A DNA stretch of 64,000 bases. Origin: Acutalibacteraceae bacterium. GTDB taxonomy: Bacteria; Bacillota; Clostridia; Oscillospirales; Acutalibacteraceae. The notes below the pieces were generated by a model. That model was not told the DNA's origin. It did no database searches and worked only from the letters and a program-made list of their open reading frames with translations. Position 1 is the first letter of the stretch. Every line of letters starts with the position of its first letter. Positions 39,733 through 57,800 of this stretch are shown piece by piece. The position numbers and the translations under genes are program-made. The stretch lies in NCBI GenBank assembly GCA_036309045.1, contig JAXJUM010000042.1, positions 48,744-112,743 on the forward strand, read 5' to 3'.

Positions 39733-40074
39733 ATGGACAATACTGGCAGAAAAAATTATATGAATTATTGGAATTTTTCTAAAGAAGAAAAAAATCAACT
39801 GATTGCACACCTAACAAAAGAACTTCCCACATTAAGGGGAGCCGCTAAAGCTACCCAGGATGAAATTGCGAATATAATTGGAGTATCCCGACAAACATAC
39901 AATGCAATTGAAATGCAAAAAAGAAAAATGAGTTGGAATACATATATGTCATTGATATTGTTTTTCGATTATAATCCCAATACGCATTATACAATTAGAC
40001 AATTGGATGTTTTTCCATATCAGTTAGATGAGTGCTGGCTGTCAGGTAAACTTGAACAGTATAACGGAGAATAA
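39733..40074 (+). CDS. HTH (XRE-like) regulator, first gene of the large locus
   Basis: Product carries ATQDEIANIIGVSRQTYNAIEMQKR. Confidence 0.6.
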   Translation: MDNTGRKNYMNYWNFSKEEKNQLIAHLTKELPTLRGAAKATQDEIANIIGVSRQTYNAIEMQKRKMSWNTYMSLILFFDYNPNTHYTIRQLDVFPYQLDECWLSGKLEQYNGE

Positions 40075-40077
40075 TTT

Positions 40078-40305
40078 ATGGGAATTGAAGTTATAAAAAA
40101 AGATATACAAATTTTCCAGTCTTCTATCAAAAATTTAAGTGCTGGAATAAGTCGTGCTTCATCCTTATGGAAGGATGAAAAATATTCTGAACTTTCAGCT
40201 TCGATAAGAGAAGTTGCTAATAATTCAAAAAATGTTATTGTTACTGGTGACAGGTGTTGCTCAACGGTAGATAAATTTATCAAAATAGCAGCAGAAAAAT
40301 ATTAG
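40078..40305 (+). CDS. WXG100-like small helical protein (W-K-D-x-K-Y family)
   Basis: 75 aa with a central SLWKDEKYSEL. It is a paralogue of 42753 and of the toxin N-terminal domains. Confidence 0.6.
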   Translation: MGIEVIKKDIQIFQSSIKNLSAGISRASSLWKDEKYSELSASIREVANNSKNVIVTGDRCCSTVDKFIKIAAEKY

Positions 40306-40316
40306 GAGGTCATAGT

Positions 40317-41063
40317 GTGGTTGATGTAACAACAGAAGCATTAGAAATGGTAAAAAATGCTTTAACGACCTTTCAATCCGATATAAATGGTTTATCTATG
40401 CGTGCAACTAATCAAGCTGAAAAAATTACAGAAGAATGTAAAAATCATATAAAACAAGCAAAAACTGAAATAGCTCAAATTGAAACACAAATTTCTGCAT
40501 TAAATAAACAAATTTCTGAATTAAACGAGAAGATTGAGCAGGCGACAAGTCAATATAATACTATACTTACAAGGATTCCTCAATTAGAGAATAATATACG
40601 TTCCATAAATTCGAGAATTTCAGTACTGAACTCGCAAATAGCCTCGTTAAGATCTCAACTTGCAAATACAGAAGATGATGATGAACGTCAACAAATACAA
40701 GAACAAATCAATGTGGTAAGTCATCAGGTTGCTCAATACGAATCAGAACGAAATCGGTTAGAAATTGAATTGCAAAATTCTGAGCAACAAAAGAACGAAC
40801 TTCAACAAACTATAAATTCAGCTAAGTCAAAAAAAGCTCAATGTGAAAGTGAATTGTCAGTTCAAAAGAATAGATGTAATAGAATGAAAGACAAGCTTGA
40901 ACGTTTAAAAACAACATTTAGTAGAGTTGAATTGGATTTGAATGCTTATGTTGTTGCTACCCAAAAATTCGAAAGAAATTCAAGTGTAGAAACTCAAAAC
41001 CACAATAATTCCATTGGTAAGTGCATAGATAGTATAGAACAATATTTATCTGCTTCGATTTAG
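40317..41063 (+). CDS. Coiled-coil protein (hypothetical)
   Basis: GTG start 7 nt after AGGAGG. 248 aa with Q/N/E-rich heptad-like sequence. Confidence 0.55.
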   Translation: MVDVTTEALEMVKNALTTFQSDINGLSMRATNQAEKITEECKNHIKQAKTEIAQIETQISALNKQISELNEKIEQATSQYNTILTRIPQLENNIRSINSRISVLNSQIASLRSQLANTEDDDERQQIQEQINVVSHQVAQYESERNRLEIELQNSEQQKNELQQTINSAKSKKAQCESELSVQKNRCNRMKDKLERLKTTFSRVELDLNAYVVATQKFERNSSVETQNHNNSIGKCIDSIEQYLSASI

Positions 41064-41110
41064 AGCGCCTTCGTTAATAATACAGTAATAGACAAAGGGG
41101 AATATATTAG

Positions 41111-42223
41111 GTGAATAAAGAAAAAAACACTTTTAGAAGCAATGATGCTTTTCCGCAATCAGTGAATAATCAGTTTTGGAACGATCTTAGAAAACAGGCT
41201 GCTAATAATTATATACCAATACATGGTCATTTTGAAATTACTCCTCGATGTAATCTGAATTGTAAGATGTGTTACGTACATTTGAATAATACTCAGATGG
41301 GTAAACTAAATGAATTACCATTTTTAAAATGGAAAGAAATCGTGGACCAAGCTATTCACATGGGAATGCTTTTTGCATCAATTTCAGGGGGAGAATGTTT
41401 AACTAGTCCATATTTTGATGAACTATATTTGTATTTGAAATCTAAAGGAATTATTGTCTTTGTTTTAACAAATGGAGTTTTGCTAGATAAAAAAATATCA
41501 TTGTTTGAAAAATATCCGCCTGCATTGATTCAGGTTTCTGTGTATGGTTATGATAAAGCTAGTTATATAGCGGTTACTGAAAAAGATGAATATGATAATG
41601 TTTCAAACTCTATCGAAAAAGCACATAAATTAGGATTGCCTATTAGTGTAGCTGTTACTGCAAGTAGATATTTACCATCTGTTTATGAAATAGTTAAAAA
41701 GTATTATGAAATCGGCATCGGTGTTACTGTAAATAGATGGATAATGCCTCCATACGAATCTACAGGTAGAAAATTTGGTGATATAAATCTATCTCCTGAT
41801 GAGCAGGTTAATATTTCAAAAGAAATACTTCAAGCAACAGAACAAGAATTAATACCTTGTCCAGTTGAACCTCTGCCAAAACCAATTATGTTTTTGAAAG
41901 ACAGAGCACCTAAAAAAGGATTACTTTGTGCTGCTGGAAGAAGTGATTTTAGTATAAATTGGAAAGGAGAAATGAGCTTATGTGTTTCTTTAAATACTCC
42001 TACAGGATACCCTTTGATAGATGGTTTTAAAAAAGCTTGGGAACAAACTGTAATAGCAAGTAAGGAATTCTTAATGCCAGTTGAGTGTTATGAGTGTAAA
42101 TACTTAAAAGTATGCAATCGCTGTCCGGCACAACATTTAATAAATAATCTACCCGGACATTGTAATCCAGCGGTGTGTGAAGAAGGCATACTGATGGTTA
42201 AAAACGGATTAGTTTCTTTATAA
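41111..42223 (+). CDS. Radical SAM enzyme with C-terminal SPASM-like Cys cluster
   Basis: CNLNCKMC (CxxxCxxC) at about 41249-41272, and a C-terminal CYECKYLKVCNRCPAQ. Confidence 0.8.
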   Translation: MNKEKNTFRSNDAFPQSVNNQFWNDLRKQAANNYIPIHGHFEITPRCNLNCKMCYVHLNNTQMGKLNELPFLKWKEIVDQAIHMGMLFASISGGECLTSPYFDELYLYLKSKGIIVFVLTNGVLLDKKISLFEKYPPALIQVSVYGYDKASYIAVTEKDEYDNVSNSIEKAHKLGLPISVAVTASRYLPSVYEIVKKYYEIGIGVTVNRWIMPPYESTGRKFGDINLSPDEQVNISKEILQATEQELIPCPVEPLPKPIMFLKDRAPKKGLLCAAGRSDFSINWKGEMSLCVSLNTPTGYPLIDGFKKAWEQTVIASKEFLMPVECYECKYLKVCNRCPAQHLINNLPGHCNPAVCEEGILMVKNGLVSL

Positions 42224-42237
42224 AGGAGGTGTAAATT

Positions 42238-42354
42238 ATGTATGAAAAGCCTGTAGCTATCAAAGTGGATTTTACTTACGAGATAGCTTTCGCAAAGAAA
42301 TGTCACTTTGCAGATTACGGAGAGTGCTCTCCAAGTGAACAGCAGTATAAATGA
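42238..42354 (+). CDS. 38-aa candidate RiPP precursor peptide
   Basis: AAAGGAGG lies 8 nt upstream. Product MYEKPVAIKVDFTYEIAFAKKCHFADYGECSPSEQQYK. Followed by a hairpin. Below the ORF-track cutoff. Confidence 0.5.
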   Translation: MYEKPVAIKVDFTYEIAFAKKCHFADYGECSPSEQQYK

Positions 42355-42371
42355 TTGCTAAGTTAAAAAAT

Positions 42372-42401
42372 GAGCGGCAAACGCTCGTTAGTTTGTCGCT
42401 C
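42372..42401 (+). terminator. Hairpin (attenuator or partial terminator) after the precursor ORF
   Basis: 11-bp stem GAGCGGCAAAC/GTTTGTCGCTC (one G-U pair), 8-nt loop and a weak T-tract. Confidence 0.45.
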
Positions 42402-42423
42402 ACATTTTTAGGAGAGTTTGAGT

Positions 42424-42702
42424 ATGTGTAAATATTTCAATAGTGAAAATTATATTTGCAGACAATTAGTAGATAATATTTTACTTTTTCCTGTAAGTCA
42501 GGAAGTGAGTGACTTTCAGGGAGGCGTAATTTTAAATAGAGTATCCCATTTTGTGTGGAAGTTATTATCTGTTCCTTGTACAAAAGATGAGATTGTGAAT
42601 GCTGTATCTCAGGAGTTTAATGCGGATATAGCTATGGTAGAAACAGATATTGAAGAACTTTTAAACAGTTTTATAGAAATGAAAATTGTTAAAGTTGAAT
42701 AA
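42424..42702 (+). CDS. PqqD-family (RRE-type) peptide chaperone
   Basis: Product carries ILNRVSHFVWKLLSVPCTKDEIVNAVSQEFNADIAMVETDIEELLNSFIEMKIV. Confidence 0.65.
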   Translation: MCKYFNSENYICRQLVDNILLFPVSQEVSDFQGGVILNRVSHFVWKLLSVPCTKDEIVNAVSQEFNADIAMVETDIEELLNSFIEMKIVKVE

Positions 42703-42752: not shown

Positions 42753-43034
42753 ATGGCAAATGGTGTATCTGTAGAGAGTGCAGCCATACAGGGCGGAATT
42801 GGATGTTGTAAAACATCAATTCATGAATTAGAGACTGCATCGAGGAATTTGCAAAGAAGCTATCAGCAAGCAGGTTCAGGAGGATGGAAAGACCAAAAGT
42901 ATGCTGCATTAGGTGGTATAGTTGAAGAATGTTGCAGTGCTTTAACAAAACCTATTTCCGAACTACAGGATTGTATGGTTAAACTGAATGATTTGCTTAA
43001 AGCAGTTGGCGATTACGAGCAAGTCAATTTATAA
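42753..43034 (+). CDS. WXG100-like small helical protein (W-K-D-x-K-Y family)
   Basis: 93 aa with a central GGWKDQKYAALGGIVEEC, ending YEQVNL just as the toxin N-domains end. Confidence 0.65.
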   Translation: MANGVSVESAAIQGGIGCCKTSIHELETASRNLQRSYQQAGSGGWKDQKYAALGGIVEECCSALTKPISELQDCMVKLNDLLKAVGDYEQVNL

Positions 43035-43049: not shown

Positions 43050-43319
43050 ATGGCAGTAAAAGCTTCCCCTGAAACAATTAGGGAGATGAAAAAAGAGATT
43101 TCTAATACCATTCGAGATATTGAGAGAATCAGCAGTGGTATTAAGACAGGAATGTCAGCAACATCTAATTGGGATGATGCTAAAGCAGCTCAATTTAACA
43201 TGTTGATGCAACAGATTGCAAGGTTAACATCGACACCTATAGAAACGTTGAATGCAGCTTTACCGAAATTGGAAAAGTTAGCACAGTCATTAGATCAATA
43301 CAATAGAGTTAAATTCTAG
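43050..43319 (+). CDS. WXG100-like small helical protein (W-D-D variant)
   Basis: 89 aa with a central SNWDDAKAAQF. Confidence 0.55.
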   Translation: MAVKASPETIREMKKEISNTIRDIERISSGIKTGMSATSNWDDAKAAQFNMLMQQIARLTSTPIETLNAALPKLEKLAQSLDQYNRVKF

Positions 43320-43338: not shown

Positions 43339-44259
43339 ATGGCTAATGAACAAAAGATAACAAATGGCGTGGATGCTATTCCTACATTTACCCCGCCGTC
43401 ATCAAATGAAAATCAAACTGGAGGAAAGAGCGATGCTATTCCTACTTTCACACCTCCAACCCCTACATTTACCCCACCACAGAATGTGAAACCACAATTT
43501 AATGGACCTGCATGCTATTATCACAAGGACGAGCCTGCTGTAGCTAAATGTGCTAGATGCGGTAAATTTATTTGCCAAGATTGTTTTGATAATTATGGTG
43601 TATCAAGTGGAGATTATGCTGGTAAAGCATTGTGTTATGACTGTTGTCAGCAAATTGTAGCAGCAAATGTCGTTGATTTAAAAAAGAACAAAAATAAGAT
43701 TATGTTTCAGTTTATTATATCGATTATTGGTATGGTTTTTGGTATGATAGTTGGTATAGCAAGTGGCGGTGGCTTTGCAGGTGCGGTTATTGGTATAGCT
43801 ATAGGCGGAGTTCTGTTGAGTGCAATAAAAGTATTTTTCTCTTTGGTATGGGATGTTATTAAGATTGCCTTTTCTGGTCAATTTGGTATATTAACGATCT
43901 TCTCAATCATTTTTAACATTATTGTTTTAATAATCAAATGCTTGATAACTACAATTTCTAACACTTTCTATTACATATCTTATTTAATTAAGACGTCGGG
44001 ATTTATTGCCTCTGATGAAGCAGCTTTAAGGCAAATGGCTGACTATATGGAATATACAATGATACGTAATCAAAATAGAGGCGTTGATCTTGAAACCCTT
44101 CTTAATCAAAAGAGCGAACTCGCCGACAACTCTTATGCTCGTATGGTTCAAGAAAAAGGTGAAGAAGGTGCAGAAGCAGCACTTAGAAATTGCGTTGCAA
44201 CAATTAATGAAAATGGTGAAATCATTAGAAACTTCAATATTGCAGGTAGAGCTGCTTAA
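43339..44259 (+). CDS. Membrane protein with N-terminal Cys-rich zinc-binding (B-box-like) module
   Basis: DAIPTFTPP occurs twice. CYYHKDEPAVAKCARCGKFICQDC...CYDCC is followed by 3-4 TM helices. Confidence 0.6.
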   Translation: MANEQKITNGVDAIPTFTPPSSNENQTGGKSDAIPTFTPPTPTFTPPQNVKPQFNGPACYYHKDEPAVAKCARCGKFICQDCFDNYGVSSGDYAGKALCYDCCQQIVAANVVDLKKNKNKIMFQFIISIIGMVFGMIVGIASGGGFAGAVIGIAIGGVLLSAIKVFFSLVWDVIKIAFSGQFGILTIFSIIFNIIVLIIKCLITTISNTFYYISYLIKTSGFIASDEAALRQMADYMEYTMIRNQNRGVDLETLLNQKSELADNSYARMVQEKGEEGAEAALRNCVATINENGEIIRNFNIAGRAA

Positions 44260-44314: not shown

Positions 44315-44488
44315 ATGGATAACAATATAAATAGCGATGCAGTTGCAGCAAGAAGAAGAGCTTTGGCAGAAGCTTTGCGTACAGGTGAACCCGTTGTAGT
44401 AACCGCAAGTGGTGAAGTTGAAAAAAAGGATGATGCGGTAGACCAAGGCTTATCTGGTATTCAAGTTCCTGAGGGTAAATTAGCGTAA
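44315..44488 (+). CDS. 57-aa protein immediately upstream of the E2-like gene (candidate modifier or adaptor)
   Basis: CAGGAGGA RBS. Product MDNNINSDAVAARRRALAEALRTGEPVVVTASGEVEKKDDAVDQGLSGIQVPEGKLA. Below the ORF-track cutoff. Confidence 0.5.
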   Translation: MDNNINSDAVAARRRALAEALRTGEPVVVTASGEVEKKDDAVDQGLSGIQVPEGKLA

Positions 44489-44500: not shown

Positions 44501-45046
44501 ATGGCTTATTATTGGTATCAAAGCGACCCACAGCTGTACCAAATGGAAGTTGCAGCTATGAGGAAGTTTTTTCCATCATTCACCATAAATCAGCTCCAAG
44601 ATGGTTCAGGAAGATTGTACTGGAGAGGTAAAGTTCAACCTACAGGAGAAGGTGGTATGGTTTGGGATTTGATGTTGATTTACAAAAACACACATCCTAG
44701 AGCAGAAGGTTATGGTGGCTCTATCCAAATACTTCCTCTGCAACCTAGATTAAAAGATTTAGCTGACAATATAATGCCATCGATTCTGCAACAATATAAT
44801 AACAATATGGATACTTTGTATGCCAAAGGGTTGCAGTTAGGTCTTCCTCATGTATATCATGATAAGTTTGGACGTAATGAAGAATATTTTATTTGTAGTG
44901 CAGATCCTAAGTTTTTTAAAGCGGGACAAAATCAGTCTACTTCAGCAGCTTCAGCTTTGAGTTGGGCTTGCAAATGGATTATTCTTTGTGAGATGTGGTT
45001 GAATGGTGAAATCGGCGATGATGTCGCTTTAGAAGGTAACTATTAA
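44501..45046 (+). CDS. Prokaryotic E2 (UBC-fold)-like protein
   Basis: 181 aa. LPHVYHDKFGRNEEYFICSADP mirrors the HPN...C catalytic arrangement of E2s. Gene context is E2-JAB-E1. Confidence 0.55.
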   Translation: MAYYWYQSDPQLYQMEVAAMRKFFPSFTINQLQDGSGRLYWRGKVQPTGEGGMVWDLMLIYKNTHPRAEGYGGSIQILPLQPRLKDLADNIMPSILQQYNNNMDTLYAKGLQLGLPHVYHDKFGRNEEYFICSADPKFFKAGQNQSTSAASALSWACKWIILCEMWLNGEIGDDVALEGNY

Positions 45047-45047
45047 A

Positions 45048-46133
45048 ATGATTATACCTCCAAACTCTCTTGCAAAGCTAAAGGGAGTTTGGAGGTTTTG
45101 TTATAGGCTGGAGGTTTATCAAATGAGAGTAGTTTTTTCAAACAGAGCATACGCTTCTGTTTTAGCTGAAACAACTGAAAAGATTAAAACGGAAACCGGT
45201 GGTTTGTTTTTAGGAACGGTGCAGGATGATACTTGGTATATTATTGAAGCCATAGACCCCGGCCCAAAGTCAATTTTTCAAGTTGCATATTTTGAATATG
45301 ATCAAAAATATACCCAACACCTAATTAATAAAATTGCGAATCTGTATGATAGTCGACTGTCCTTAATTGGTTTATGGCATCGTCATCCCGGATCATTTGA
45401 TCAATTTTCATCAACAGATGATGGTACTAATGCTCAATATGCATCTATGAGAGAGGAAGGTGCAATTTCAGCTTTAGTAAACATTGATCCAAGTTTTAGA
45501 ATTACGATGTATCAGGTCGAAAGACCTTGCCGTTATAGAAAGATAGCATATGATGTTGGCGATAACCTTATTCCTGATAAGTTTTTGAGATTCAAAACAC
45601 CAGAAAGATATTATTCCATTATGAATAATATTCTTTATCCATCTACAACTGGAGGAGACGTGAATGACGGATACCACAAATCAGTTAGTTTGGCATCTTT
45701 TATGAAATTTATTCTGCCACAGATGAAAGATGACGAATGTACAGATGTTGAAACAAACAATTTACTTGGCGATGAATCTACACAAGAACAGCTTATTGAT
45801 GAAATTGTGGATGATTTGACATTTATGGCGGATACAATTGGTATTGAAACCGCTATGTCGCTTGATAACAATTACCTTACTGTTTATCAAGAAGCAATAG
45901 ATAAAACAACAAAGCTGTATTTTATGCTTTCCATTGTTAAACACGATATTATTCTTTCCTATGAAAATAAGTGCTACATATATCGCAAAGGATTATTTAT
46001 GGAAGCTTTCGGGAAAGCAAAAGCTGAGCAAGATAGAAAAGATAATAGTGAAAACAGAACAAAACATAGAAAAAAAGCAGGAGTCATTGATTCCGTTATT
46101 AAAATAATTAGATTTAACAGAAACGAGGAATAG
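45048..46133 (+). CDS. JAB/MPN (JAMM) metallopeptidase-domain protein
   Basis: Product carries AETTEK...GLWHRHPGSFDQFSSTD (E, HxH, S, D). An alternative start at 45123 follows GGAGG. Confidence 0.75.
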   Translation: MIIPPNSLAKLKGVWRFCYRLEVYQMRVVFSNRAYASVLAETTEKIKTETGGLFLGTVQDDTWYIIEAIDPGPKSIFQVAYFEYDQKYTQHLINKIANLYDSRLSLIGLWHRHPGSFDQFSSTDDGTNAQYASMREEGAISALVNIDPSFRITMYQVERPCRYRKIAYDVGDNLIPDKFLRFKTPERYYSIMNNILYPSTTGGDVNDGYHKSVSLASFMKFILPQMKDDECTDVETNNLLGDESTQEQLIDEIVDDLTFMADTIGIETAMSLDNNYLTVYQEAIDKTTKLYFMLSIVKHDIILSYENKCYIYRKGLFMEAFGKAKAEQDRKDNSENRTKHRKKAGVIDSVIKIIRFNRNEE

Positions 46134-50300: not shown

Positions 50301-51711
50301 AGATGCTGGCGGTGTGTCCAAAATTAAGGATTATATTAAAGTTACCGGAAATCCCATGCCCCGCATCATGGTCATTATGGATGAATTCCAGATACTTTTT
50401 AACGATTCTACTAATAGAAAGGTTGCTAATCGTTGTGCAGAATTAGCAAAGCGTATTGTTACGGAGGGCCGTTCTTTTGGCATTCATCTTTTTATGGCAA
50501 CACAGTCCACAAGAATTATATCTGACCTGACTTTGTCTTCTGGTACAATCGAGCAAATGCGTATTCGTGTCGGCTTAAAATGCGGCGAGAATGATGCAAG
50601 ATATTTGTTCTCGGATCAAAACGACACAAAGGCATTGGCAATGATGAAGGGACCTATCGGTACTGCTGTTATGAACTTAGACTATACCGAACAGTCCAAT
50701 ATCGGATTCAGAGCTGCATACTGTGACGATGCAACACAAAAGTATTATCTTGATTTAATCAGTAAGACCTATGCAGAACAACCGTCTACCTTGCAGACCT
50801 TTGAAGGTAGCAGAACAACTAACTTGGTTGATTATTTTGCGGATGCAAATATCGGTGCAACATCTGAGCTTCCGGCACAAATTCATATGGGTACACTCAT
50901 AAAAGTTGCTCCGCCTTTCGCAATTTGTATCGACAAGAAAAAGAAACACAACCTTTTGGTTTGTGGTTCTAATGAAAGAATGGCTAATACCATTTCTAAT
51001 AACTATATGATTTCGGCCTTGCTTAATCGCAATGCAACCGTCTACTGTATTGACGGCGACAAACTTGTTGGTGATGATGGCTCGGCAGATTTCTATGATG
51101 CTCTTGGTGAGTGTAGCAGCACTCAGTTCAAAGTTGCTCAGGATCGTGCTGATATTATCAAGTTCATCAATGAGATTTATCAAAGTTATCAGACTTGGAA
51201 GAAGCAGAATAGTGATGATGTAATTTTCGTAGTAATCAAGAACCTTCAATTCTTGGATATTGTTAAGTCGATGTTCAAGGGAGATGTAATTGATGAAAGC
51301 GAGTTTATTGATGAAGTTTCTGCTGAACCTGAGTTTAACCCTGCCGATCCGTTTGCAGCAGTAAACAATATGTTTGCAAACAGAGGTAGTGACGATAATA
51401 TGTCGGTTGGTGAAAAACTCATAAAGATGATTGAAGATGGTTCGGGATTTGGTATTCACTTTGTGGTTACATCACTTGAATATCAATCTGTAAGAGAATG
51501 TATGTACTACGGTGAAAATATCCTCACAAAATTCCCTGAACGTATCATCTTTTCTCTTGGATCTAACGATGCTGATAATCTTATTGAAAACGTTTCGGTT
51601 GCAGGCTTGAGAGATAATACGGTTTACTTCACGGATGGAGTTAAAAACACATTCCAAATGAAACCGTATATTACACCTTCTGCAAATGAATTGAAGAAAC
51701 TGTTTGATTAA
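47320..51711 (+). CDS. FtsK/SpoIIIE-family (EssC/EccC-like) multi-domain ATPase without recognisable TM or FHA regions
   Basis: There is one canonical module (GATGSGKST at about 50053, VIMDEFQ, GIHLFMATQS). Two upstream modules and one downstream module have degenerate P-loops. The N-terminus is coiled-coil. Confidence 0.8.
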   Translation: MKALAQSEIIALITDLNAFADSAEALINTTRINYDKDKRLLQNRHSSVLSNLDSTYKANCSSVQSKSKQTIADAKKILAETNKLDEKLSSVDKYYVKTKKKKEKLLSDTTSAAYDDATDYFKTLSKIKDSFKVLYKKYSEDILPGLINGLNYLFSSQRKKDYEELIILRNTVAAFVKEIEEMLPQLTEENLATLKEDYFTQRGSMIERQKNEVANFESNHSATLDKVADKICTELDNVLPDEFVDYLSAIMANYAKVVHKVNASNEIQDEVLNMCYVDYPVDFFVQSKIVASIIKEKCSKLLVNGSIRLPVMMSTRNAPVWMIANDNSNSSMVQAFTHSIMYGLLSSCPVEKLTFTIVDPENRGNSISPFFDAKKKLPELFGERIYISKDEVAAKVSKLNEKIENILQDRLGNQYDTIFDYAKSTPDYNLNVEFIMLYDFPRGFDERTLAELRNVLRNGSMCGIYTVISYLPEPDNTRSREYQQNLQSIIDLSTVINQNGENFVLRGLPLVYYTMPEKIEFAKFFSKYMLIFEGIKNRGIAFSPLIRKLIEAKDSMELDAHIEQICEMMKNYEKTYAQVPEIKSVFPSLVTLGNVLYPADVFSDSIGYKHIIDKFGTERRAGTENTSFVELPLTFDLRNSFNLFLNCPEASSKGMLDFTHHVIWSFLSFMPVTKVNVCVFDSEQRGNSIIPFLDFRKRSPETFDQKIYTSQEQMYDRLQKINAQIDEFIQEKLGNRYKDILDYNLNTPNRAEPVTLLVLYDFPSGMDGRSIDLLKNILRNGNKCGVFTLICYNPNITFSRYESIDERLEQISRYCASIDYKHGHYSLLPYNLQINTPELLSYNATDVFIADYIEKSETIKKQGLSFKDIISKDLFSLDSSKSMKIPVGVGDGDSIVNITIGEGSSHHGLIAGATGSGKSTLLHTLIMSSMLHYSPDQLHLYLMDFKSGTEFKIYESVKLPHIQLLALDAMQEFGESILENLVTEMEARAKAFKEDAGGVSKIKDYIKVTGNPMPRIMVIMDEFQILFNDSTNRKVANRCAELAKRIVTEGRSFGIHLFMATQSTRIISDLTLSSGTIEQMRIRVGLKCGENDARYLFSDQNDTKALAMMKGPIGTAVMNLDYTEQSNIGFRAAYCDDATQKYYLDLISKTYAEQPSTLQTFEGSRTTNLVDYFADANIGATSELPAQIHMGTLIKVAPPFAICIDKKKKHNLLVCGSNERMANTISNNYMISALLNRNATVYCIDGDKLVGDDGSADFYDALGECSSTQFKVAQDRADIIKFINEIYQSYQTWKKQNSDDVIFVVIKNLQFLDIVKSMFKGDVIDESEFIDEVSAEPEFNPADPFAAVNNMFANRGSDDNMSVGEKLIKMIEDGSGFGIHFVVTSLEYQSVRECMYYGENILTKFPERIIFSLGSNDADNLIENVSVAGLRDNTVYFTDGVKNTFQMKPYITPSANELKKLFD

Positions 51712-51788
51712 ATGTGTGGATATGCCATATACACAGAGGTTTACCCCTTTGTGTATATGGCTAATTCCAAAAGAAGGAGCGAGGGAAA

Positions 51789-52580
51789 ATGATTTGTAAG
51801 AAGTGCGGAAAAGAGATAAAAGATACCGCTAAATTTTGCGGTTATTGTGGTTCAGTAAACGAACCTACTATTGGCGTACAGACGCCGGAAATTTCTGAAA
51901 CGGTCAACTATACACCGTCTTGGATGAAACAAGAGGTGAAAACAACAACGAGTACAATTTCTGCTAAGCAGAATGTAGATATTAAGACTGAAATAAGTAA
52001 AAATGCGGGATTGGTTGCGTTGCCGTGCATTTATTTGGTTTGGCAAATTATACGAATATTCTTAAATAGGAATATGATAAGTTATGGCAATGACTCCTAT
52101 ATGACCTATATGTATATCACAATTATTGTAGGGTGTATTCTTTATGGTGCTATAAGCGGCGGATTAGTAATTGCTATAAATAAGTGTTCAAAAAATTTCA
52201 AATGGGTATATTTAATTCCCTATATGATTGTTTGTGCTTACTTTTTGCTTACGAGTATAAACTATTTTGAAAGTGTACTATATTCGATTTTTGAGTTTTT
52301 AGAAATAATCGTTTCTATGGTAGTGATTATTTCTTTGCAAAACACACAATTAGGTAAAGAAAAATCAGCGAAGTCAACTATTACGATTGCCGCTATTTCT
52401 ACCGGCGCCGGAGTGCTTGTGTTCCGTTTCCTTTATTATTTACTTATTAGCATTCTTTTCGGTGGATTTGTAAGTTTTACTCTTTGGAATGTCATCACAA
52501 GTGCAGCTTCCATACTTGGTGCTGTGATTACTTCGGCAGTAATCGTTAATTCCGCTTATATGAAAAACTCACAGAGGTAG
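51789..52580 (+). CDS. Zinc-ribbon + polytopic membrane protein
   Basis: N-terminal CKKCG...CGYCG followed by about 6 TM helices. Confidence 0.6.
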   Translation: MICKKCGKEIKDTAKFCGYCGSVNEPTIGVQTPEISETVNYTPSWMKQEVKTTTSTISAKQNVDIKTEISKNAGLVALPCIYLVWQIIRIFLNRNMISYGNDSYMTYMYITIIVGCILYGAISGGLVIAINKCSKNFKWVYLIPYMIVCAYFLLTSINYFESVLYSIFEFLEIIVSMVVIISLQNTQLGKEKSAKSTITIAAISTGAGVLVFRFLYYLLISILFGGFVSFTLWNVITSAASILGAVITSAVIVNSAYMKNSQR

Positions 52581-52585
52581 ACGTT

Positions 52586-53512
52586 ATGGAATTAGTATGT
52601 TTATTATTAACCGTTTTCGGTTTAATTATTTGTTTTGGCGGTATTTATATTAGAAAATTCTGTTCTTCCATTATGGGTTTAGTGTGGGGAGCTTTCCTTT
52701 CTATTATTCTTATTGTTTTGACTACGGAATCAATATGGCAAATTGATAGCGAGGAATCGTTAGTATGGATTGTAATTGGAGCAATTACACTTGCTATCTT
52801 TTCTGCAATATATGAGAAAGCGTGTGCTTTTCTGAATAGCTTTATACCGACATTTTTTATTGTATGTGTATTATTGCTATTCAACATTCTTTCAAATGAA
52901 GATCTTGAGATATCAGCAGTGGTTATCATTGCTCTAATCGTAGCTTTTATCTCAGGCTTTATTAGTTATAAGATTTACGACATTGCTTTTATGCTCGAAA
53001 CGGCTTTTACAGGAGCGTTTATAGCTTCATTGGGTATATATGGTCTTACAGAAGGAGCAAACGATGTTGGTGATGTGGTTTTCGGCGCAGTAATGGATGA
53101 CGAAGTTATAGGTTATATATTGCTTGGTACTGTTGTTTTAGGCATTATCGGTTTTTGCGTTCAATGGGGCAGATTTAAGACTATCAAGGAAGAAAAAAAC
53201 TTGGAAGATAAAAAAGATACTTCCACTACAGATGGTTGGCAATGCCAATGCGGTAAGTTAAATTCTTTCGAGCATCAATTCTGTGAAGAATGTGGTAAGC
53301 AATTTATTGAACCTGATTTCTCCCAAAAATCTTGGAACTGCAAGTGCGGAGCTTCCAATGCAGACGAGATGTTATTCTGCTCTGAGTGTGGAGCAAATCG
53401 CCTGCAGCAAGAATATTCTAAATGGATATGTTCAACTTGTGGAACAGAAAATGAACACGATATGCTCTATTGCTCTGAGTGTGGCAAGGTTTCCGGAGGT
53501 AAAAAGCAATGA
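52586..53512 (+). CDS. Polytopic membrane protein with three C-terminal RanBP2-type zinc-ribbon repeats
   Basis: About 6-7 TM helices, followed by WQCQCGKLNSFEHQFCEECG, WNCKCGASNADEMLFCSECG and WICSTCGTENEHDMLYCSECG. Confidence 0.65.
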   Translation: MELVCLLLTVFGLIICFGGIYIRKFCSSIMGLVWGAFLSIILIVLTTESIWQIDSEESLVWIVIGAITLAIFSAIYEKACAFLNSFIPTFFIVCVLLLFNILSNEDLEISAVVIIALIVAFISGFISYKIYDIAFMLETAFTGAFIASLGIYGLTEGANDVGDVVFGAVMDDEVIGYILLGTVVLGIIGFCVQWGRFKTIKEEKNLEDKKDTSTTDGWQCQCGKLNSFEHQFCEECGKQFIEPDFSQKSWNCKCGASNADEMLFCSECGANRLQQEYSKWICSTCGTENEHDMLYCSECGKVSGGKKQ

Positions 53513-53787
53513 TTATTGATGGACATAAATCCATAGAAGAACTACAAGAATTGCGATATAACTATCACAAAGATATTGCACAGTTAGAAGAAATGCATTC
53601 TCGACTTAGAGAAAGATATTCAAAACTTTCTGAAATCAATGATAATAGGCACATCTATGAACTTTTGGAACTAACTGTCGATAGCTTAAGAAGTGTCGAA
53701 GAAGCATTACATAAACTACACGAAGCAGATGCAGGTGCCGAGAAACTGATCGAACTTTATCAGGCATACTTAAAGGTTGAACTATAA
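53509..53787 (+). CDS. Small helical protein (hypothetical; possible secretion chaperone or adaptor)
   Basis: 92 aa, start overlaps the upstream stop (ATGA), predicted all-helical. Confidence 0.5.
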   Translation: MIIDGHKSIEELQELRYNYHKDIAQLEEMHSRLRERYSKLSEINDNRHIYELLELTVDSLRSVEEALHKLHEADAGAEKLIELYQAYLKVEL

Positions 53788-53814
53788 TTGATTTTTTGCA
53801 AAGGAGGGATTTGC

Positions 53815-54789
53815 GTGGGAATGGTAAATGCCGATGTTACTGAGTTGTTGCAATCTTGGAATAATATCAAGACAGCAATTACAAGCATCGAAACGACAAG
53901 ATCGTCAATGACAAGAAAATATCAACAACTTAATGGCGAATGGAAAGATAAAAAGTATAAAGAATTAGGCGATGTTGTTCAAGAATGCAGCAAAGCGTTA
54001 AATGAAATATTGAAAATCTTATCCAAAGGCGAAAAATTCATTGGTTCACTTGCAAAAAACTTGCAAGAGTATGAGGAAGTTAATCTTGATAATCGGTTTG
54101 GTAGTTCATATAGCGGCTCTTATTCAGTATCAAGCGAAACGAATTCTACAAACTCCGTTCACAGTGCGATAGCGTCACAAGGACTTACACATACCCGACA
54201 AGAAACCACAAATGTGTTCTTAAATGGAAGAAATTGTACCGTATTTGACCACCCGTTTGACGAAAATTCAGGACGAATTTGCAATCAAGGAAGTGCATAT
54301 CCAACAGGACCACAAAACACTTGCGGTTGTTGTTCAAGTGGCACAATTATAAACAAAGCAGGTGGTAACACCAATGAACACGATATGGTCGCATTTGCTT
54401 GGAATAATGGGTTTTGTGATAATGATGGTTTTACAACAGCAAACACAATAACGGACATCCTAACAACTTCGGGTATTCCTTCAACAAATACCAGCGGCAC
54501 TAGCTTGGAAAATCTTGCTTCCTATGTAGAACAAGGTCGTGGTGTTATTATTGCGGTAAATGCAAGACGTTTTGATCCGGACTTGTATAGGCAATCAGGA
54601 GGACACGCCATAGTTTTGGAAAGCGTTATTAGGGATGCTCAAACACACGAAATATTAGAGTACGTTGTGGTTGACTCAAACAGAGAAAATTCGGTTAATG
54701 CTGCAAGACGAGTTTCTGTACAAAGATTAGAAAGAGCATTTGGAGATTTGGGAAACCAATCAATCTCTACTAACAACATTATTTGGTAG
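53815..54789 (+). CDS. Polymorphic-toxin-like protein: W-K-D-x-K-Y N-domain + papain-like Cys peptidase-like C-domain
   Basis: GTG start 6 nt after AAGGAGGG (an ATG at 53821 is also possible). The N-domain is nearly identical to that of 55304. The C-domain has NTCGCCSSG, GGHAIVLE and VVDSN in Cys/His/Asp order. Confidence 0.6.
   Translation: MGMVNADVTELLQSWNNIKTAITSIETTRSSMTRKYQQLNGEWKDKKYKELGDVVQECSKALNEILKILSKGEKFIGSLAKNLQEYEEVNLDNRFGSSYSGSYSVSSETNSTNSVHSAIASQGLTHTRQETTNVFLNGRNCTVFDHPFDENSGRICNQGSAYPTGPQNTCGCCSSGTIINKAGGNTNEHDMVAFAWNNGFCDNDGFTTANTITDILTTSGIPSTNTSGTSLENLASYVEQGRGVIIAVNARRFDPDLYRQSGGHAIVLESVIRDAQTHEILEYVVVDSNRENSVNAARRVSVQRLERAFGDLGNQSISTNNIIW
53823..54058. repeat. Direct repeat copy A (shared toxin N-terminal domain)
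   Basis: Manual alignment to 55312-55547 gives 9 mismatches over 236 nt with no gaps. Confidence 0.85.
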
Positions 54790-54797
54790 GTGCAGTG

Positions 54798-55271
54798 ATG
54801 AATATTAACGATAAATTTAGCAAAGTTTTGTCATCAATAGAATTTCAATTAGCAAGATCATTACCAATATTTAATGATGGTAACGAAATACTTTTCTTCT
54901 ATAAGACTGATGAAATAAACAAAACAGAATATAGAGTATCCGAAGTACGATATGTTGTTTTCAGAAATATTGATAATGGGCATATAGAAGTTATAAAAGC
55001 AGTCGATGCTCTTCCAAAGGAATTGATAGATGCACTTGTTGAAAGTACGAATATGCATATATTAAGTGTCGAGCAAGAACTGAAAAATGAAGATGATTAT
55101 TTAGAACTATATGAAAAAATAACGGAAGAATATTGTACCAAAAACTACAGTGCTTCTGAATTGCAAACACTTTCAGCGTTATTTTTGAAATTAACAGAAG
55201 GAACGAGCCTTCTCCCACTATATAGATATTTGGGCAAAGAATTTTTCGAACTGATTTCTTTGGATATATGA
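54798..55271 (+). CDS. Putative cognate immunity protein 1
   Basis: About 158-aa acidic protein that overlaps the toxin stop. No motif recognised; the call is positional. Confidence 0.45.
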   Translation: MNINDKFSKVLSSIEFQLARSLPIFNDGNEILFFYKTDEINKTEYRVSEVRYVVFRNIDNGHIEVIKAVDALPKELIDALVESTNMHILSVEQELKNEDDYLELYEKITEEYCTKNYSASELQTLSALFLKLTEGTSLLPLYRYLGKEFFELISLDI

Positions 55272-55303
55272 GAAATATCATCGCTTAAAGGAGGTGTAAG
55301 CTA

Positions 55304-56356
55304 TTGAGTTTGGTAAATGCCGATGTTACCGAGCTATTGCAATCTTGGAATAATATCAAGACGGCAATTACAAGTATCGAAACGACAAGATCGTCAATGG
55401 CAAGAAAATATCAACAACTTAATGGCGAATGGAAAGATAAAAAGTATAAAGAATTAGGCGATGTTGTTCAAGAATGTAGCAAAGCCTTAAATGAAATATT
55501 GAAAATCTTATCCAAAGGCGAAAAATTCATAGGTTCACTTGCAAAAAGTTTGCAGGAATATGATAATGTTAACTTAGATGGAAGTATGGGCGCAGATAAT
55601 GCCTTTGTTCAAAACCTGAGAAATATGACATATTCCGCAGGTGAAACACCTTCCTATCAGTATTGTCTTGGCGTGTTGACAAGGGGTAATATTCCTGAAG
55701 GTTATCTCAATGTAATATCTGAAAGACACCAAAACGGTGAAACGGGAGTACGCAGAGTATTCGATCATTTTACAAATCAAATGTTGATACAAGATGCGAA
55801 TTATCCACCTAACCAAACGGCACATTACTCACCGATGAATTATGAGGGACATCGTAGGGGTGTTTATTACAATGCAACTTCGGATATGACTAATCCGAGA
55901 GGTGCAGGAACTACATATTTTCACGAGCTTGCACATATGATCGACCACGCATCAACGGGTTATCAAGGGAACTTGTCAAATACACCTGAATTTGGAAATG
56001 CGTTAATGCAAGACGGTCAACGAATATTGCAATTATATAACAATCTGCCCCCTGAACAGCAGAACGCTTTTTTAACACGCATACGGTCTGACTCAGCTCA
56101 TTCTTTTTCAGACTTGATAGATGCAACAACTAACGGGCAATTACACGGAAGTTACGGTCACTCAAGAGAATATTGGACTCGTTCCGGTAATCTACAAGCC
56201 GAAGCATTTGCACACTTTTTTGAAGCATCTATGGGTAGTGAGGAAAAGCTTGAAATGCTTGCAAACTTTTTCCCAACTGCATTTGGCGTGTTTTCAACAC
56301 TTATTGAATCAATCCAACCCGACCAATATGTTCGGGTATTAGAAAGGAGCAGATAA
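55304..56356 (+). CDS. Polymorphic-toxin-like protein: W-K-D-x-K-Y N-domain + HExxH zinc metallopeptidase-like C-domain
   Basis: TTG start 8 nt after AAAGGAGG. The motif TYFHELAHMIDH is at about 55918-55950. Confidence 0.6.
   Translation: MSLVNADVTELLQSWNNIKTAITSIETTRSSMARKYQQLNGEWKDKKYKELGDVVQECSKALNEILKILSKGEKFIGSLAKSLQEYDNVNLDGSMGADNAFVQNLRNMTYSAGETPSYQYCLGVLTRGNIPEGYLNVISERHQNGETGVRRVFDHFTNQMLIQDANYPPNQTAHYSPMNYEGHRRGVYYNATSDMTNPRGAGTTYFHELAHMIDHASTGYQGNLSNTPEFGNALMQDGQRILQLYNNLPPEQQNAFLTRIRSDSAHSFSDLIDATTNGQLHGSYGHSREYWTRSGNLQAEAFAHFFEASMGSEEKLEMLANFFPTAFGVFSTLIESIQPDQYVRVLERSR
55312..55547. repeat. Direct repeat copy B (shared toxin N-terminal domain)
   Basis: The partner of 53823-54058. 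Confidence 0.85.
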
Positions 56357-56359
56357 CTT

Positions 56360-56614
56360 ATGAGTATAAATAAAAAGGTTTCAGATTTTATGAATGCTTT
56401 TCTTGACACTCCTGAACCTGATATAGATCAGGAATACTATCAAATTGAAGAACAATACAAGGCAATGTTCGGTCATACTGTGCCGAGAGCTATGTTGCCT
56501 GACGGTATTTCTATGGACAGTATCAAATCCGCTATGAAAACTTGTATTGAAAACAAGAAAGATACTCTATTTGAATTGCTCGGTGTTGAACTGAATGACG
56601 AGTATCTATACTAA
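56360..56614 (+). CDS. Putative cognate immunity protein 2
   Basis: 84-aa ORF starting 3 nt after the toxin stop. The call is positional. Confidence 0.45.
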   Translation: MSINKKVSDFMNAFLDTPEPDIDQEYYQIEEQYKAMFGHTVPRAMLPDGISMDSIKSAMKTCIENKKDTLFELLGVELNDEYLY

Positions 56615-56624
56615 GGAGAAGCAA

Positions 56625-56891
56625 ATGGAGAACGATAACATAATTGTTTTGAACGATGATGACGGTAATGAGGTGGAGTTCGAATTTTTGGATCTCATAC
56701 CGTATCGTGGAAAAGAATATGTAGTATTGCTCCCCGTTTCTGATGAAGCAGATGAAGTTGTTATCCTACAACTTGAAGAAGCAGATGATGAAACAGAGAG
56801 TTATATTAGTGTTGATAATGAATTAACATTGCAAGCAGTTTTTGAGATATTCAAAGAACGTGCAAAAGATACATTTAATTTTGTAGATTGA
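56625..56891 (+). CDS. DUF1292-like small acidic protein
   Basis: Start at the ATG after AAGGAGAA. Product MENDNIIVLNDDDGNEVEFEFLDLIPYRGKEYVVLLP. Confidence 0.55.
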   Translation: MENDNIIVLNDDDGNEVEFEFLDLIPYRGKEYVVLLPVSDEADEVVILQLEEADDETESYISVDNELTLQAVFEIFKERAKDTFNFVD

Positions 56892-56918
56892 TATATACGA
56901 AAAGAAGGAGGTGGCGCA

Positions 56919-57800
56919 ATGGATATATGGCATAAATTAGGAAGAATATTTAGAATCTCAAATTTAGGCACGTTAATATTTTTCTTGTTAAATATAGGAC
57001 TAATATTAGCTTTATTCTGTCCCTATGGCATTACCTTTGAAGCGGCAGCTCCTTTGGTTGTTTGTTACATAGTTACAGTTTTAATTAGTTTATCACCAAT
57101 CGGAGAATGGACTCTTGCTGCTCTTGCGGGAGCAAAGGAAATCAAGCGTAAAGATATTAAAATTCGTTTGATACCGTTGTTAGAGATTGTATTTGAACAA
57201 GCAAAAGCAAGAACTCCATATATGGTTAATTCCATTCGCTTAAAGATAATTCACGACCAGTCGCCAAATGCTTTTGCGATAGGTCGAAGAACTATATGCG
57301 TTACAGATGGCTTGCTCAATCTCTCTGACGAAGAAATAATGGCAGTGTTTGCCCACGAAGTAGGTCATCTTGCATACCAGCATTCAGCGATACAACTATT
57401 AATAGGCGGTGGCAATGTATTTATCTCTGGATGTTTATTAATAATTAAGGGTATATGCTGGTTGATTACTGGCTTGTTTACCGTGATTGGGTTAGCATCA
57501 AGAAGCTGTGCTGTTGGTTTTTTAGTAATGATTGTTGGTGGTTTTTCATCTGCTTTAATTTGGTTATGGACTAAATTTTGTATGATTTTTTTAATGTGGT
57601 CTATGCGACAAAATGAATTTGTTGCAGACGAGTATGCGTATAGGCTAGGATATGGTACAATATTAGCAAGTGTGTTAGATAGACATATGTGTACCGTGCC
57701 TGAAAACGGATTGTTGAGAGCGTTATACTCCACGCATCCTTATAGTGATGATCGTGTGGCAAGGTTACAAAATTTAGGAGCAAATTATAGTAGGTATTAA
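56919..57800 (+). CDS. M48-family (HtpX-like) membrane zinc metalloprotease
   Basis: Multiple TM helices, an AHEVGHL (HExxH) motif and a distal THPYSDDR. Confidence 0.7.
   Translation: MDIWHKLGRIFRISNLGTLIFFLLNIGLILALFCPYGITFEAAAPLVVCYIVTVLISLSPIGEWTLAALAGAKEIKRKDIKIRLIPLLEIVFEQAKARTPYMVNSIRLKIIHDQSPNAFAIGRRTICVTDGLLNLSDEEIMAVFAHEVGHLAYQHSAIQLLIGGGNVFISGCLLIIKGICWLITGLFTVIGLASRSCAVGFLVMIVGGFSSALIWLWTKFCMIFLMWSMRQNEFVADEYAYRLGYGTILASVLDRHMCTVPENGLLRALYSTHPYSDDRVARLQNLGANYSRY

Follow-up and report, generated by a model that had tools for sequence, protein, structure and literature searches.

A phase-variable locus of gut Clostridia that joins type VII secretion-like genes, polymorphic toxins and a candidate ubiquitin-type conjugation cascade

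We analysed a 64,000-nt stretch of DNA (hereafter the window) from an Acutalibacteraceae bacterium (assembly GCA_036309045.1, contig JAXJUM010000042.1, positions 48,744 to 112,743 of the forward strand), and focused on the gene cluster at positions 39733-57800, in which genes resembling those of type VII secretion systems (T7SSs) lie next to genes for ubiquitin-type conjugation enzymes. There are 23 open reading frames (ORFs; g1 to g23, see Table 1) in this cluster, all on the + strand and preceded by good Shine-Dalgarno sequences; an original prediction, made from the sequence alone, had counted 25 genes. Stops and starts overlap at several junctions and the largest intergenic gap is 77 nt (51711-51789), so the predicted close packing, with gaps of up to about 80 nt, was borne out. 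Domain searches of the ORFs recovered nearly every item of the predicted gene content in its place, including a radical SAM/SPASM enzyme with a 38-aa peptide and PqqD, a 57-aa ORF followed by E2, JAB and E1 genes, a 1,463-aa ATPase, an M48 protease and two toxin-immunity cassettes, whose toxins (g18 and g20) carry the same N-terminal domain as the small proteins of the cluster.

The arrangement recurs, far beyond chance, in 130 loci collected from genomes and metagenomes. An ATPase-anchored scan (one genome per species, by alignment of the ATPase) gave 50 loci with ATPase identities of 33-92%, and an E2-anchored scan of metagenomes with family-specific patterns, which finds only close relatives (71-89% identity), gave 80; all loci were annotated by six-frame ORFs and iterated hidden Markov models (HMMs) built from the window proteins. 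The gene order is near-constant: a helix-turn-helix (HTH) gene where present, then genes for a WXG-like protein of ~75 aa, a coiled-coil protein of ~248 aa, and WXG-like proteins of ~93 and ~89 aa; next the B-box transmembrane (TM) protein, the ~57-aa protein, E2, JAB, E1 and the ATPase; and finally one to three toxins with a WXG-like N-domain, accompanied by small downstream genes and often followed by a DUF1292 gene and the M48 gene. Among 41 ATPase-anchored loci with at least 4.2 kb of upstream DNA, g9, g10, E2 and JAB are each found in 39 and E1 in 38; where 7.6 kb or more is available upstream (32 loci), the coiled-coil gene g3 is found in 29 and at least three small WXG-like genes in 28; and with at least 4 kb downstream (35 loci), a toxin is found in 23 and M48 in 19. 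The reverse also holds. Starting from E2, JAB, E1 and the ATPase follow in all 57 loci with enough downstream DNA, and g10, g9, g3 and three WXG-like genes precede it in 50 out of 51 loci with enough upstream DNA. Genes flanking the cluster vary from locus to locus.

The original prediction had weighed one integrated system against a mosaic of independent modules, and had named beforehand a test that bears on the choice, namely whether the conjugation trio, the TM-less ATPase and the WXG-like genes co-occur outside this element; they do, in the 130 loci. Because the order is fixed and co-occurrence is near-total in both directions, with differing flanks, the mosaic is refuted for the core. Throughout Clostridia, the core genes (g2, g3 and g7 to g14) stay together and keep their order, along with the toxins, the cognate genes after these and usually M48.

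Table 1. Features of the cluster and of the invertible segment upstream of it (positions in the window)
Feature	Position	Strand	Basis or remark
Invertible segment (inverton), 1,421 bp, directly upstream of g1	38291-39711	.	26-nt inverted repeats
Sigma-70 consensus promoter TTGACA-17-TATAAT (12/12), facing out	38345-38373	-	recombinase-upstream end of the segment
Tyrosine recombinase inside the segment	38484-39623	+	Phage_integrase 1.8e-27
g1, XRE-type HTH protein, first gene after the switch	39733-40074	+	weak HTH_19/HTH_3 matches
g2, WXG-like small protein, 75 aa, W-x-D motif	40078-40305	+	HMM family shared with g7 and g8; position before g3 kept
g3, ~248-aa coiled-coil protein, core	40317-41063	+	only coiled-coil Pfam matches
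g4, radical SAM/SPASM maturase	41111-42223	+	Radical_SAM 1.3e-18; SPASM weak, 0.021
g5, 38-aa precursor ending ...QYK	42238-42354	+
g6, PqqD	42418-42702	+	PqqD 1.1e-9
g7, WXG-like small protein, 93 aa; invariant C19, W45, D47	42753-43034	+	family alignment
g8, WXG100-like small protein, 89 aa; invariant W41, D43, Y84	43050-43319	+	Pfam WXG100 3.5e-5
g9, membrane protein with B-box-like zinc finger	43339-44259	+	zf-B_box 8.4e-5
g10, 57-aa candidate modifier, C-terminus ...GKLA	44315-44488	+	conserved family
g11, CBASS-type E2-like protein	44501-45046	+	PADLOC CBASS E2 9.3e-9
g12, JAB/JAMM isopeptidase	45048-46133	+	Prok-JAB 5.8e-7; PADLOC JAB 3.6e-12
g13, E1-like adenylating enzyme, ThiF fold	46138-47292	+	ThiF 7.2e-25; PADLOC Cap2-type E1-E2 4.2e-25
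g14, soluble EssC/EccC-like ATPase, 1,463 aa	47320-51711	+	NCBIfam EssC 1.2e-39, EccCa 1.6e-33
g15 (zinc ribbon + 6-7 TM), g16 and g17, accessory cassette	51789-53787	+	Pfam, TM scan
g16, 7 TM of TM7S3/TM198 type + three zinc ribbons	within 51789-53787	+	Pfam, TM scan
g17, 92-aa helical protein right before toxin g18	within 51789-53787	+
g18, toxin (WXG-like N-domain + Peptidase_C39_2-like C-domain), and g19, putative immunity	53788-55271	+	Pfam
g20, toxin (WXG-like N-domain + HExxH metallopeptidase-like C-domain), and g21, 84-aa putative immunity	55304-56614	+
g22, DUF1292 protein, frequent accessory	56595-56891	+	Pfam 2.2e-17
g23, membrane M48 metalloprotease, usual last gene	56919-57800	+	Peptidase_M48 4.5e-22; 5 TM segments (hydropathy scan)

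Nearly all ATPase-anchored loci come from metagenome-assembled genomes of gut or rumen Clostridia (Lachnospiraceae, Oscillospiraceae, Ruminococcus, Butyricicoccus and Acutalibacteraceae); cultured carriers among them are Faecalibacterium prausnitzii ATCC 27768 (L037) and Lachnospiraceae MGB1 (L047). The system is not typically borne by plasmids or phages, because a tblastn search with the E2 protein gave no match in the PLSDB plasmids or INPHARED phages and matched only two IMG/VR contigs. Two variants of the arrangement were also seen. In one locus (L041, 7897-13834) three WXG-like genes and the coiled-coil gene lie directly before an intact 1,454-aa ATPase gene. In a second group (e.g. L050, L051, L052, P0250, P0253 and P0261) the ATPase is shorter, ~1,110-1,160 aa, with one D0-like (degenerate) domain where the window protein has two; this class keeps g9, g10, E2, JAB and E1 upstream, and its small WXG-like genes are found downstream of the ATPase.

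The ATPase g14 matches the EssC and EccCa models of NCBIfam (E-values in Table 1) much better than the FtsK model (9.5e-8). These matches span only residues ~880-1063, where Pfam also places its single match (FtsK_SpoIIIE, residues 882-1063), with the P-loop GATGSGKST at 911-920. Compared with PDB sequences, the family profile finds EccC (4nh0, 5e-32), EccC5 and Bacillus subtilis YukB, all aligned at the D1 domain. By comparison of sub-alignments, residues ~301-590 and ~620-875 are two tandem copies of one domain (E 2e-66), both without a P-loop, and the C-terminal ~290 residues look like a further degenerate copy (weak match, E 6e-4). When the N-terminal 860 residues were searched against the library, 79 clusters were found at E < 1e-30, and the same search reached distant ATPases of 1,300-1,600 aa with a degenerate domain right before the active one; in one of these (P0355) the EccCa model covers both the degenerate and the active domain. 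Because of this placement and coverage, the duplicated domains probably correspond to the 'DUF/D0' domain of EccC/EssC, giving the architecture of a ~300-aa helical N-domain, D0, D0, D1 (with the active P-loop) and Dx (degenerate), with no TM or FHA region. The matches and a hydropathy scan thus agree with the original prediction of an EssC/EccC-type ATPase without TM or FHA. There are at least 251 full-length homologues, called only 'FtsK' where they are named. The P-loop domain also matches the SspH, mad8 and HerA defence models of PADLOC.

The small proteins g2, g7 and g8 and the N-terminal domains of g18 and g20 belong to one family, and the g7 and g8 families are paralogous (hhalign 98.3%). 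The g8 profile finds EsxA (2vs0) among PDB sequences at E 0.001 over the full length, and the g8 family aligns with Staphylococcus aureus EsxA, tryptophan on tryptophan (hhalign 93.7%, with an approximate EsxA sequence); the g7 profile finds EsxA and EsxB, full length as well, with weak scores. Pfam WXG100 matches have E-values of 3.5e-5 to 4.6e-6 and scores of 24.4-27.3 bits against a cut-off of 27.3, which g20 reaches and g8 and g18 just miss. The prediction of four or five helical proteins of WXG100 size therefore holds for g2, g7 and g8, which form one family; g17 is helical and not a member of it. The coiled-coil protein g3 is possibly a long helical-hairpin partner or a substrate. As a separate point, the lysines of the W-K-D-x-K-Y motif were considered as acceptor sites and rejected, as the W and D alone are constant in it and lysine is missing there from the g8 family.

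The membrane protein g9 consists of N-terminal IPTFTPP repeats, a cytosolic binuclear zinc finger, three to four TM helices and a conserved C-terminal NGEIIRxF motif. Eight zinc ligands are invariant (C59, H62, C71, C74, C79, C82, C99 and C102). The zf-B_box score of g9 is 23.1 bits (Pfam cut-off 24.1) and PF00643 is recorded on many of its homologues; among PDB sequences its profile finds only weak B-box matches (E 0.4-0.8). On these sequence features we propose g9 as a candidate membrane anchor and E3-like adaptor. Homologues have one to three IPTFTPP repeats, and the tail after NGEIIRxF varies in length and mostly ends in Ala-Ala (g10 likewise ends in Ala); the repeats and tail may be a docking motif, a degron or a second E1 substrate. 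The original prediction listed three membrane proteins with zinc ribbons: g9, g15 and g16 all have TM segments, and the ribbons are found in g15 and g16, the zinc finger of g9 being B-box-like.

The next four genes encode what looks like a conjugation cassette, in the predicted order of a 57-aa ORF, E2, JAB and E1. The g10 family (54-63 aa, 314 clusters, one variant found on at least 1,000 contigs) has a highly conserved core, AARRRALAEALRxGEPVVVTxxGEVE...IQVPxGKLA. The Ala that ends this core is invariant; in about one member in four it is followed by two to four additional residues (e.g. KED, RED, GEA, SSEV or KGGT), a pattern that resembles a modifier precursor trimmed by its peptidase. The AlphaFold2 (AF2) model of g10 (pLDDT 79.6) has a helix-strand-strand-helix-strand order with a free tail. 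In g11, H117 and C132 are invariant in the family alignment; the protein itself has no Pfam match, and one homologue has a faint match to Pfam E2-CBASS. The JAMM motif of g12 (H111-x-H113-x7-S121-x2-D124) is kept in at least 97% of 36 homologues, whereas the C-terminal half is variable and missing in some relatives. The listed g12 ORF (45048) begins 25 codons ahead of the conserved region, and the true start is probably M26 at 45123. The E1-like protein g13 has a conserved Gly-rich loop (GCGSVGS), CRHQ and DNR motifs and two CxxC-type Cys pairs, and in the NCBIfam scan it also matches the ThiF and MoeB models. The motifs of the cascade are intact throughout (E1 adenylation motifs, E2 catalytic Cys and JAMM), and the closest models for g11, g12 and g13 are Cap2 and Cap3 of the 6A-MBL system and of the cyclic-oligonucleotide-based antiphage signalling system (CBASS). 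No CD-NTase or cyclic-nucleotide-activated effector family was found among the window ORFs with Pfam or PADLOC.

Every one of the 100 proteins of 180 aa or more that are encoded downstream of the ATPase begins with a WXG-like domain, and clustering with domain-only HMMs sorted their 91 distinct C-termini into 11 clusters. The C-domains include ADP-ribosyltransferase (3.1e-27), Colicin-DNase/WHH (3.4e-21), Endonuclease_NS_2 (5e-17) and C39-like peptidase. The toxin cluster covaries with the cluster of the next gene, the same next-gene family being found in 30 out of 38, 17 out of 18 and five out of seven cases. In the window, g18 (C39-like) is a member of toxin cluster 1 (26 members), and g20 (HExxH; WXG100 4.6e-6, weak M91 match) belongs to the cluster in which 30 out of 38 toxins share the next-gene family. 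A constant N-domain, variable C-domains and a cognate next gene, which would provide immunity, are what polymorphic toxins have, and the combination of a WXG/LXG-type trafficking domain with swappable C-domains is the signature of secreted polymorphic toxins (Zhang et al. 2012, PMC3482391). It is mainly because of this signature that we infer export rather than an intracellular role.

Directly upstream of g1 lies an invertible segment, bounded by inverted repeats (38291-38316 and 39686-39711) that are 96% complementary. A homologue of its recombinase is found upstream of the system in 47 of the 130 loci, mostly at most about 250 bp away (a few are 1-2 kb away), on the + strand in 34 and on the - strand in 13. 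Several pairs of loci that are otherwise 97-99.9% identical differ by inversion of precisely this segment, of about 1.45 kb (L004/L005, L073/L074 and L067/L069), and the same inversion is seen between L061 and L064 (89-97% identity). In 22 sources both the inverted repeats and the promoter are found, and the promoter keeps its end of the segment: it points toward the system in seven and away from it in 15, including the window. The inverted repeats, both natural orientations, the internal promoter and the site-specific recombinase together make this an inverton, and the predicted phase variability is well founded in it. Two terminator-like sites were also seen, a 12-bp hairpin with a T run after the recombinase stop (39648-39690, +), which would block read-through into g1, and a hairpin just left of the segment (38147-38117, -), which would stop transcripts from the promoter in its OFF orientation; together they look like insulation for the switch. 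Because the promoter points away from the system and these hairpins are in place, the window most likely represents the OFF state.

The radical SAM gene, the short peptide gene and the PqqD gene (g4 to g6) do form the predicted triad for a ribosomally synthesised and post-translationally modified peptide (RiPP), with a maturase related to AlbA, SkfB and PqqE-type enzymes (NCBIfam; weak SPASM match), PqqD and an adjacent short precursor. The triad is not a core part: between g3 and g7 it is found in the window only and in none of the 130 other loci. L130 has a homologous triad (5402-7033), with a similar precursor also ending in QYK, placed after its recombinase gene and before its first WXG-like gene, and radical SAM and PqqD genes follow M48 in L048 (15972-17537). 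The triad is thus an accessory that recurs, with three different points of entry, and its three positions in three divergent loci suggest a preferred association rather than a single accident; in this strain it is probably accessory antagonism cargo inserted into the operon. An exact look-up of the radical SAM sequence gave only contigs of at most 2.3 kb.

The cassette g15 to g17, which the original prediction had counted as part of the system, is accessory too and is found in few loci only (e.g. L022, L069, L058 and L075). The HTH gene g1 is found in 12 out of 53 genome-anchored sources and is labelled in most of the longer metagenome loci; g22 is found in nine out of 53 and in many metagenome loci.

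The window as a whole is a conjugative element, as predicted, with a Mob_Pre relaxase, VirD4, VirB4, a sortase, a CHAP hydrolase and a serine recombinase, along with an Eco47II restriction-modification (RM) system and an OLD nuclease. Neither Rfam nor a tRNA scan gave a match in the window. The description of the system as borne by an integrative and conjugative element (ICE) applies to this window and not in general, since most of the other loci have no type IV secretion genes within 10 kb. The left end of the element has a gene (1328-7657) for a 2,109-aa protein that unites MutS domain I, an Eco57I-like methylase region and an SNF2/ResIII helicase. Among the conjugation genes, but on the other strand, an island of low GC content (0.31-0.35; 25273-28989, -) carries the OLD-family ATPase/TOPRIM nuclease, the Eco47II restriction enzyme and an HTH-fused C5 methylase. 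Left of the inverton (37368-38298) are two - strand ORFs, a 116-aa ORF and a 123-aa HTH_3 protein that adjoins the system in eight loci, and a + strand YpsA/SLOG-like ORF that ends within the left inverted repeat. Downstream of M48 (58133-61905) we found genes for an M78/IrrE-like peptidase, a small zinc-ribbon protein, a sigma-70 region 4-like protein, a MazF/PemK toxin and another tyrosine recombinase, a paralogue of the one in the inverton; these genes are not kept beside the system elsewhere, except for MazF (four loci) and the paralogous recombinase.

It is likely, at slightly better than even chance, that the genes of the locus are inherited together as a single system, which exports polymorphic antibacterial toxins in a T7SS-like way, is phase-variable and has a ubiquitin-type conjugation cascade of its own; both the export and the conjugation are read from the sequences. 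The steps could be as follows. Inversion of the segment would turn the operon ON. JAB would trim extended g10 precursors and expose the terminal Ala, which E1 would adenylate, and E2 would then carry g10 as a thioester on Cys132. The B-box protein g9 would serve in the membrane as anchor, E3-like adaptor or both, so that the tag would go onto a component of the machine or its cargo (the TM-less ATPase, g9 itself or the WXG-like proteins), and JAB could reverse the attachment. The soluble ATPase, with one active D1-type domain between degenerate ones, would dock at the membrane and export WXG-like dimers as well as toxins that share their N-domain; the downstream genes would give self-immunity, and a membrane or exported component might be processed by M48. 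It is possible, though we are doubtful, that this is a secretion machine run by covalent tagging, in which a tag without a beta-grasp fold marks cargo or motor for a hexameric EssC-like ATPase with the help of E1, E2, a B-box E3-like protein and a JAMM peptidase.

Several observations weigh against an exporter with a conjugation cascade. As the original prediction had noted, components of known systems are not recognisable: neither Pfam nor NCBIfam gave a match to EssA, EssB (the pseudokinase), EsaA or YukD/EsaB in the 23 ORFs, though divergent analogues are possible. The EssC and EccCa scores of g14 (136 and 116 bits) are far below the family cut-offs (778 and 509), because these are single domain matches, and there is neither a hydrophobic segment in its 1,463 aa nor an FHA match. 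The only near-universal membrane protein is g9, whose three to four TM helices are poorly conserved and whose AF2 model is poor (pLDDT 54.6, shallow alignment), so that its B-box and E3 role comes from sequence features. WXG100 family matches are at or below the curated cut-offs, the invariant motif is W-x-D and not W-x-G, and a YxxxD/E-type signal is not conserved in the alignments of the WXG-like family. On the conjugation side, g10 seems tag-like and not recognisably a beta-grasp protein: in place of a beta-grasp fold with a C-terminal Gly it has a modelled alpha-beta-beta-alpha-beta fold and an invariant Ala, and Foldseek gave no match of the model to PDB structures at E < 1. The g11 profile finds no PDB sequence even at E 10, and its family is not similar to human UBE2D2 (hhalign 0.6%, with an approximate UBE2D2 sequence); the E2 assignment therefore rests on the PADLOC CBASS E2 models and the conserved His and Cys. 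Among the loci, L041 is an intact variant without g9 to g13 (B-box protein, tag, E2, JAB and E1) and without a recognised downstream toxin, 12 out of 35 loci have no recognised toxin in the available downstream DNA, and the E2-anchored scan reached only 71-89% identity, so distant E2 relatives in other contexts are possible.

The same genes can be read in other ways. We consider it unlikely that they form an intracellular conflict or anti-phage system, in which a Cap2/Cap3-like pair and a small primed tag would control an FtsK/HerA-type ATPase acting as sensor or motor, nothing would be exported and the 'toxins' would be abortive-infection or addiction effectors restrained by antitoxins. That E1, E2 and JAB match CBASS and 6A-MBL Cap2/Cap3 best fits such a system, as do a soluble ATPase whose P-loop also matches the SspH, mad8 and HerA defence models, and a locus on a mobile element near RM and OLD genes. 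However, EssC and EccC match the ATPase much better than any other family does, and all 100 toxins combine the WXG100-like N-domain with swappable C-domains (ADP-ribosyltransferase, colicin DNase and EndoNS) and cognate next genes; in addition, no CD-NTase, sensor or nucleotide-signalling gene was found among the window ORFs with Pfam, and PADLOC has no match for g9, g10 or the WXG-like proteins. E1-like enzymes are also known to adenylate peptide C-termini (in the microcin C7 and pantocin pathways) and sulfur carriers. The 57-aa protein could, instead of modifying proteins, be a precursor or carrier that the E1-like enzyme adenylates at its C-terminus, in the chemistry of small molecules or peptides (MccB/PaaA or ThiS/MoaD type), with the product or thiocarboxylate serving the export system or being exported itself. 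The additional matches of E1 to ThiF and MoeB, the lack of a beta-grasp match for the 57-aa protein and the RiPP module in or beside the system in three loci would suit this scheme, yet the JAMM isopeptidase and the E2, with its invariant Cys, are constant members of the system, and these enzymes are hallmarks of a tag being put on proteins and taken off again rather than of sulfur or peptide chemistry; neither a sulfurtransferase nor a biosynthetic partner is conserved, and the closest models, Cap2 and Cap3, are protein conjugation enzymes. We find it improbable.

A chance mosaic of RiPP, Bil-like defence, toxin and FtsK ATPase modules in an ICE cargo hotspot, for which one can cite the accessory nature of the RiPP triad and of g15 to g17 and the much unrelated cargo of the window, is very hard to credit, given that the core order is found in 130 loci from several families of Clostridia with near-total two-way co-occurrence and different flanking genes. 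ATPase identities of 33-92% also argue against copies of one recently spread element.

To our knowledge, the ubiquitin-like proteins of known type VII systems (YukD/EsaB and EccD) are essential and never conjugated, and their role is unexplained. A widespread T7SS relative with a full enzymatic cascade would make the role of ubiquitin-like biology in type VII secretion testable. Bacterial E1/E2/JAB genes have so far been seen in CBASS, Bil and Bub, with characterised functions in phage defence; if the exporter reading is right, protein export would be a fourth context, and g10 would be a new, very small modifier fold ending in Ala. Should covalent tagging indeed run the machine, it would parallel ubiquitin and Rpn11 at the proteasome, and would represent either the enzymatically active state that the inert YukD/EsaB/EccD parts have been left over from or a convergent counterpart of these parts. 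Clostridia of human and animal guts, cultured strains included, commonly carry the system, and with its diverse antibacterial toxins and phase variation it probably shapes competition between gut strains.

Among known systems, the T7SSb (EssC, EsxA, LXG toxins with Lap partners, YukD/EsaB) is similar in its FtsK-family ATPase, whose active domain the one found here resembles most and is likewise preceded by D0-like domains, in its WXG100-like small proteins, in toxins with a helical N-terminal trafficking module and immunity-type genes, in small helical genes beside the toxins (here g17) and in a link to ubiquitin. The differences are that the ATPase here has no TM or FHA region and another domain count (N-helical, D0, D0, D1, Dx), that W-x-D replaces W-x-G, that EssA, EssB, EsaA and YukD were not found, and that in place of a non-conjugated ubiquitin-like protein (Ubl) there are E1, E2 and JAB, a 57-aa candidate tag without a beta-grasp fold and a B-box membrane protein. 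The subtypes c to j of the T7SS are Bacillota variants, some of them in Clostridia (T7SSf and T7SSj), with an ATPase, WXG100 proteins and lineage-specific extras; their TsxC ATPase is membrane-bound in every case, a YukD-like TsxB without a conjugatable C-terminus is found in most, and the words ThiF and JAB are absent from the text of the survey (Garrett, Higginson and Palmer 2024, PMC11217815). The present clusters are likewise variants built on an ATPase and WXG100-like proteins, but with a soluble ATPase and conjugation genes. Iyer et al. (2006, PMC1779556) connect YukD with ESX solely as a component that is not conjugated. 'Mobile versions of T7SS' in other phyla combine solo WXG domains with a YueA-like ATPase of three FtsK/HerA domains, only the middle one being active, and no E1, E2, JAB, B-box protein or small tag is mentioned for them (Zhang et al. 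2012, PMC3482391). Compared by description only, they share with our system a multi-domain FtsK-like ATPase with a single active domain, WXG-type partners and mobility.

Type II CBASS provides, with Cap2 (E2-E1) and Cap3 (JAB), the best-matching models for the E2, E1 and JAB found here. Its chemistry consists of C-terminal adenylation, thioester transfer and reversal by JAMM, and the conjugated C-terminus need not be that of a beta-grasp Ubl. In our system E2 and E1 are separate genes, and a dedicated 57-aa protein, in the context of a secretion-type ATPase, is the likely conjugated species. Because there is no CD-NTase or effector family and only the E2, E1 and JAB models match, the system would not count as a CBASS, although its conjugation enzymes are Cap2/Cap3-like. 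The order of small protein, E2, JAB and E1 mirrors BilA-B-C-D of the Bil (BilABCD) and Bub systems, as do the precursor-like extensions on the candidate modifier; however, Bil/Bub modifiers are beta-grasp Ubls ending in Gly, whereas the modifier here is an alpha/beta mini-protein ending in Ala and without a Foldseek match, Bil is a phage defence system with no EssC-like ATPase, and NCBIfam gave no Bil-named model for the proteins here. A paper that covers the ubiquitination-like operons of bacteria (CBASS II, Bil and Bub) does not contain 'FtsK', 'secretion', 'WXG' or 'ATPase' in its text, and in the literature outside subscription-only papers we found no description of E1/E2/JAB combined with T7SS, WXG or FtsK. 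The switch resembles gut invertons of the fimS/FimBE type in its inverted repeats, outward promoter, both natural orientations and tyrosine recombinase, but here the recombinase gene lies inside the 1.4-kb segment and a T7SS-like operon would be under its control. T7SS-like in its make-up, and set apart from T7SS members by its ATPase, which is not of the membrane type, and by the lack of recognisable accessory Ess proteins, the system is apparently an undescribed variant that combines two known kinds.

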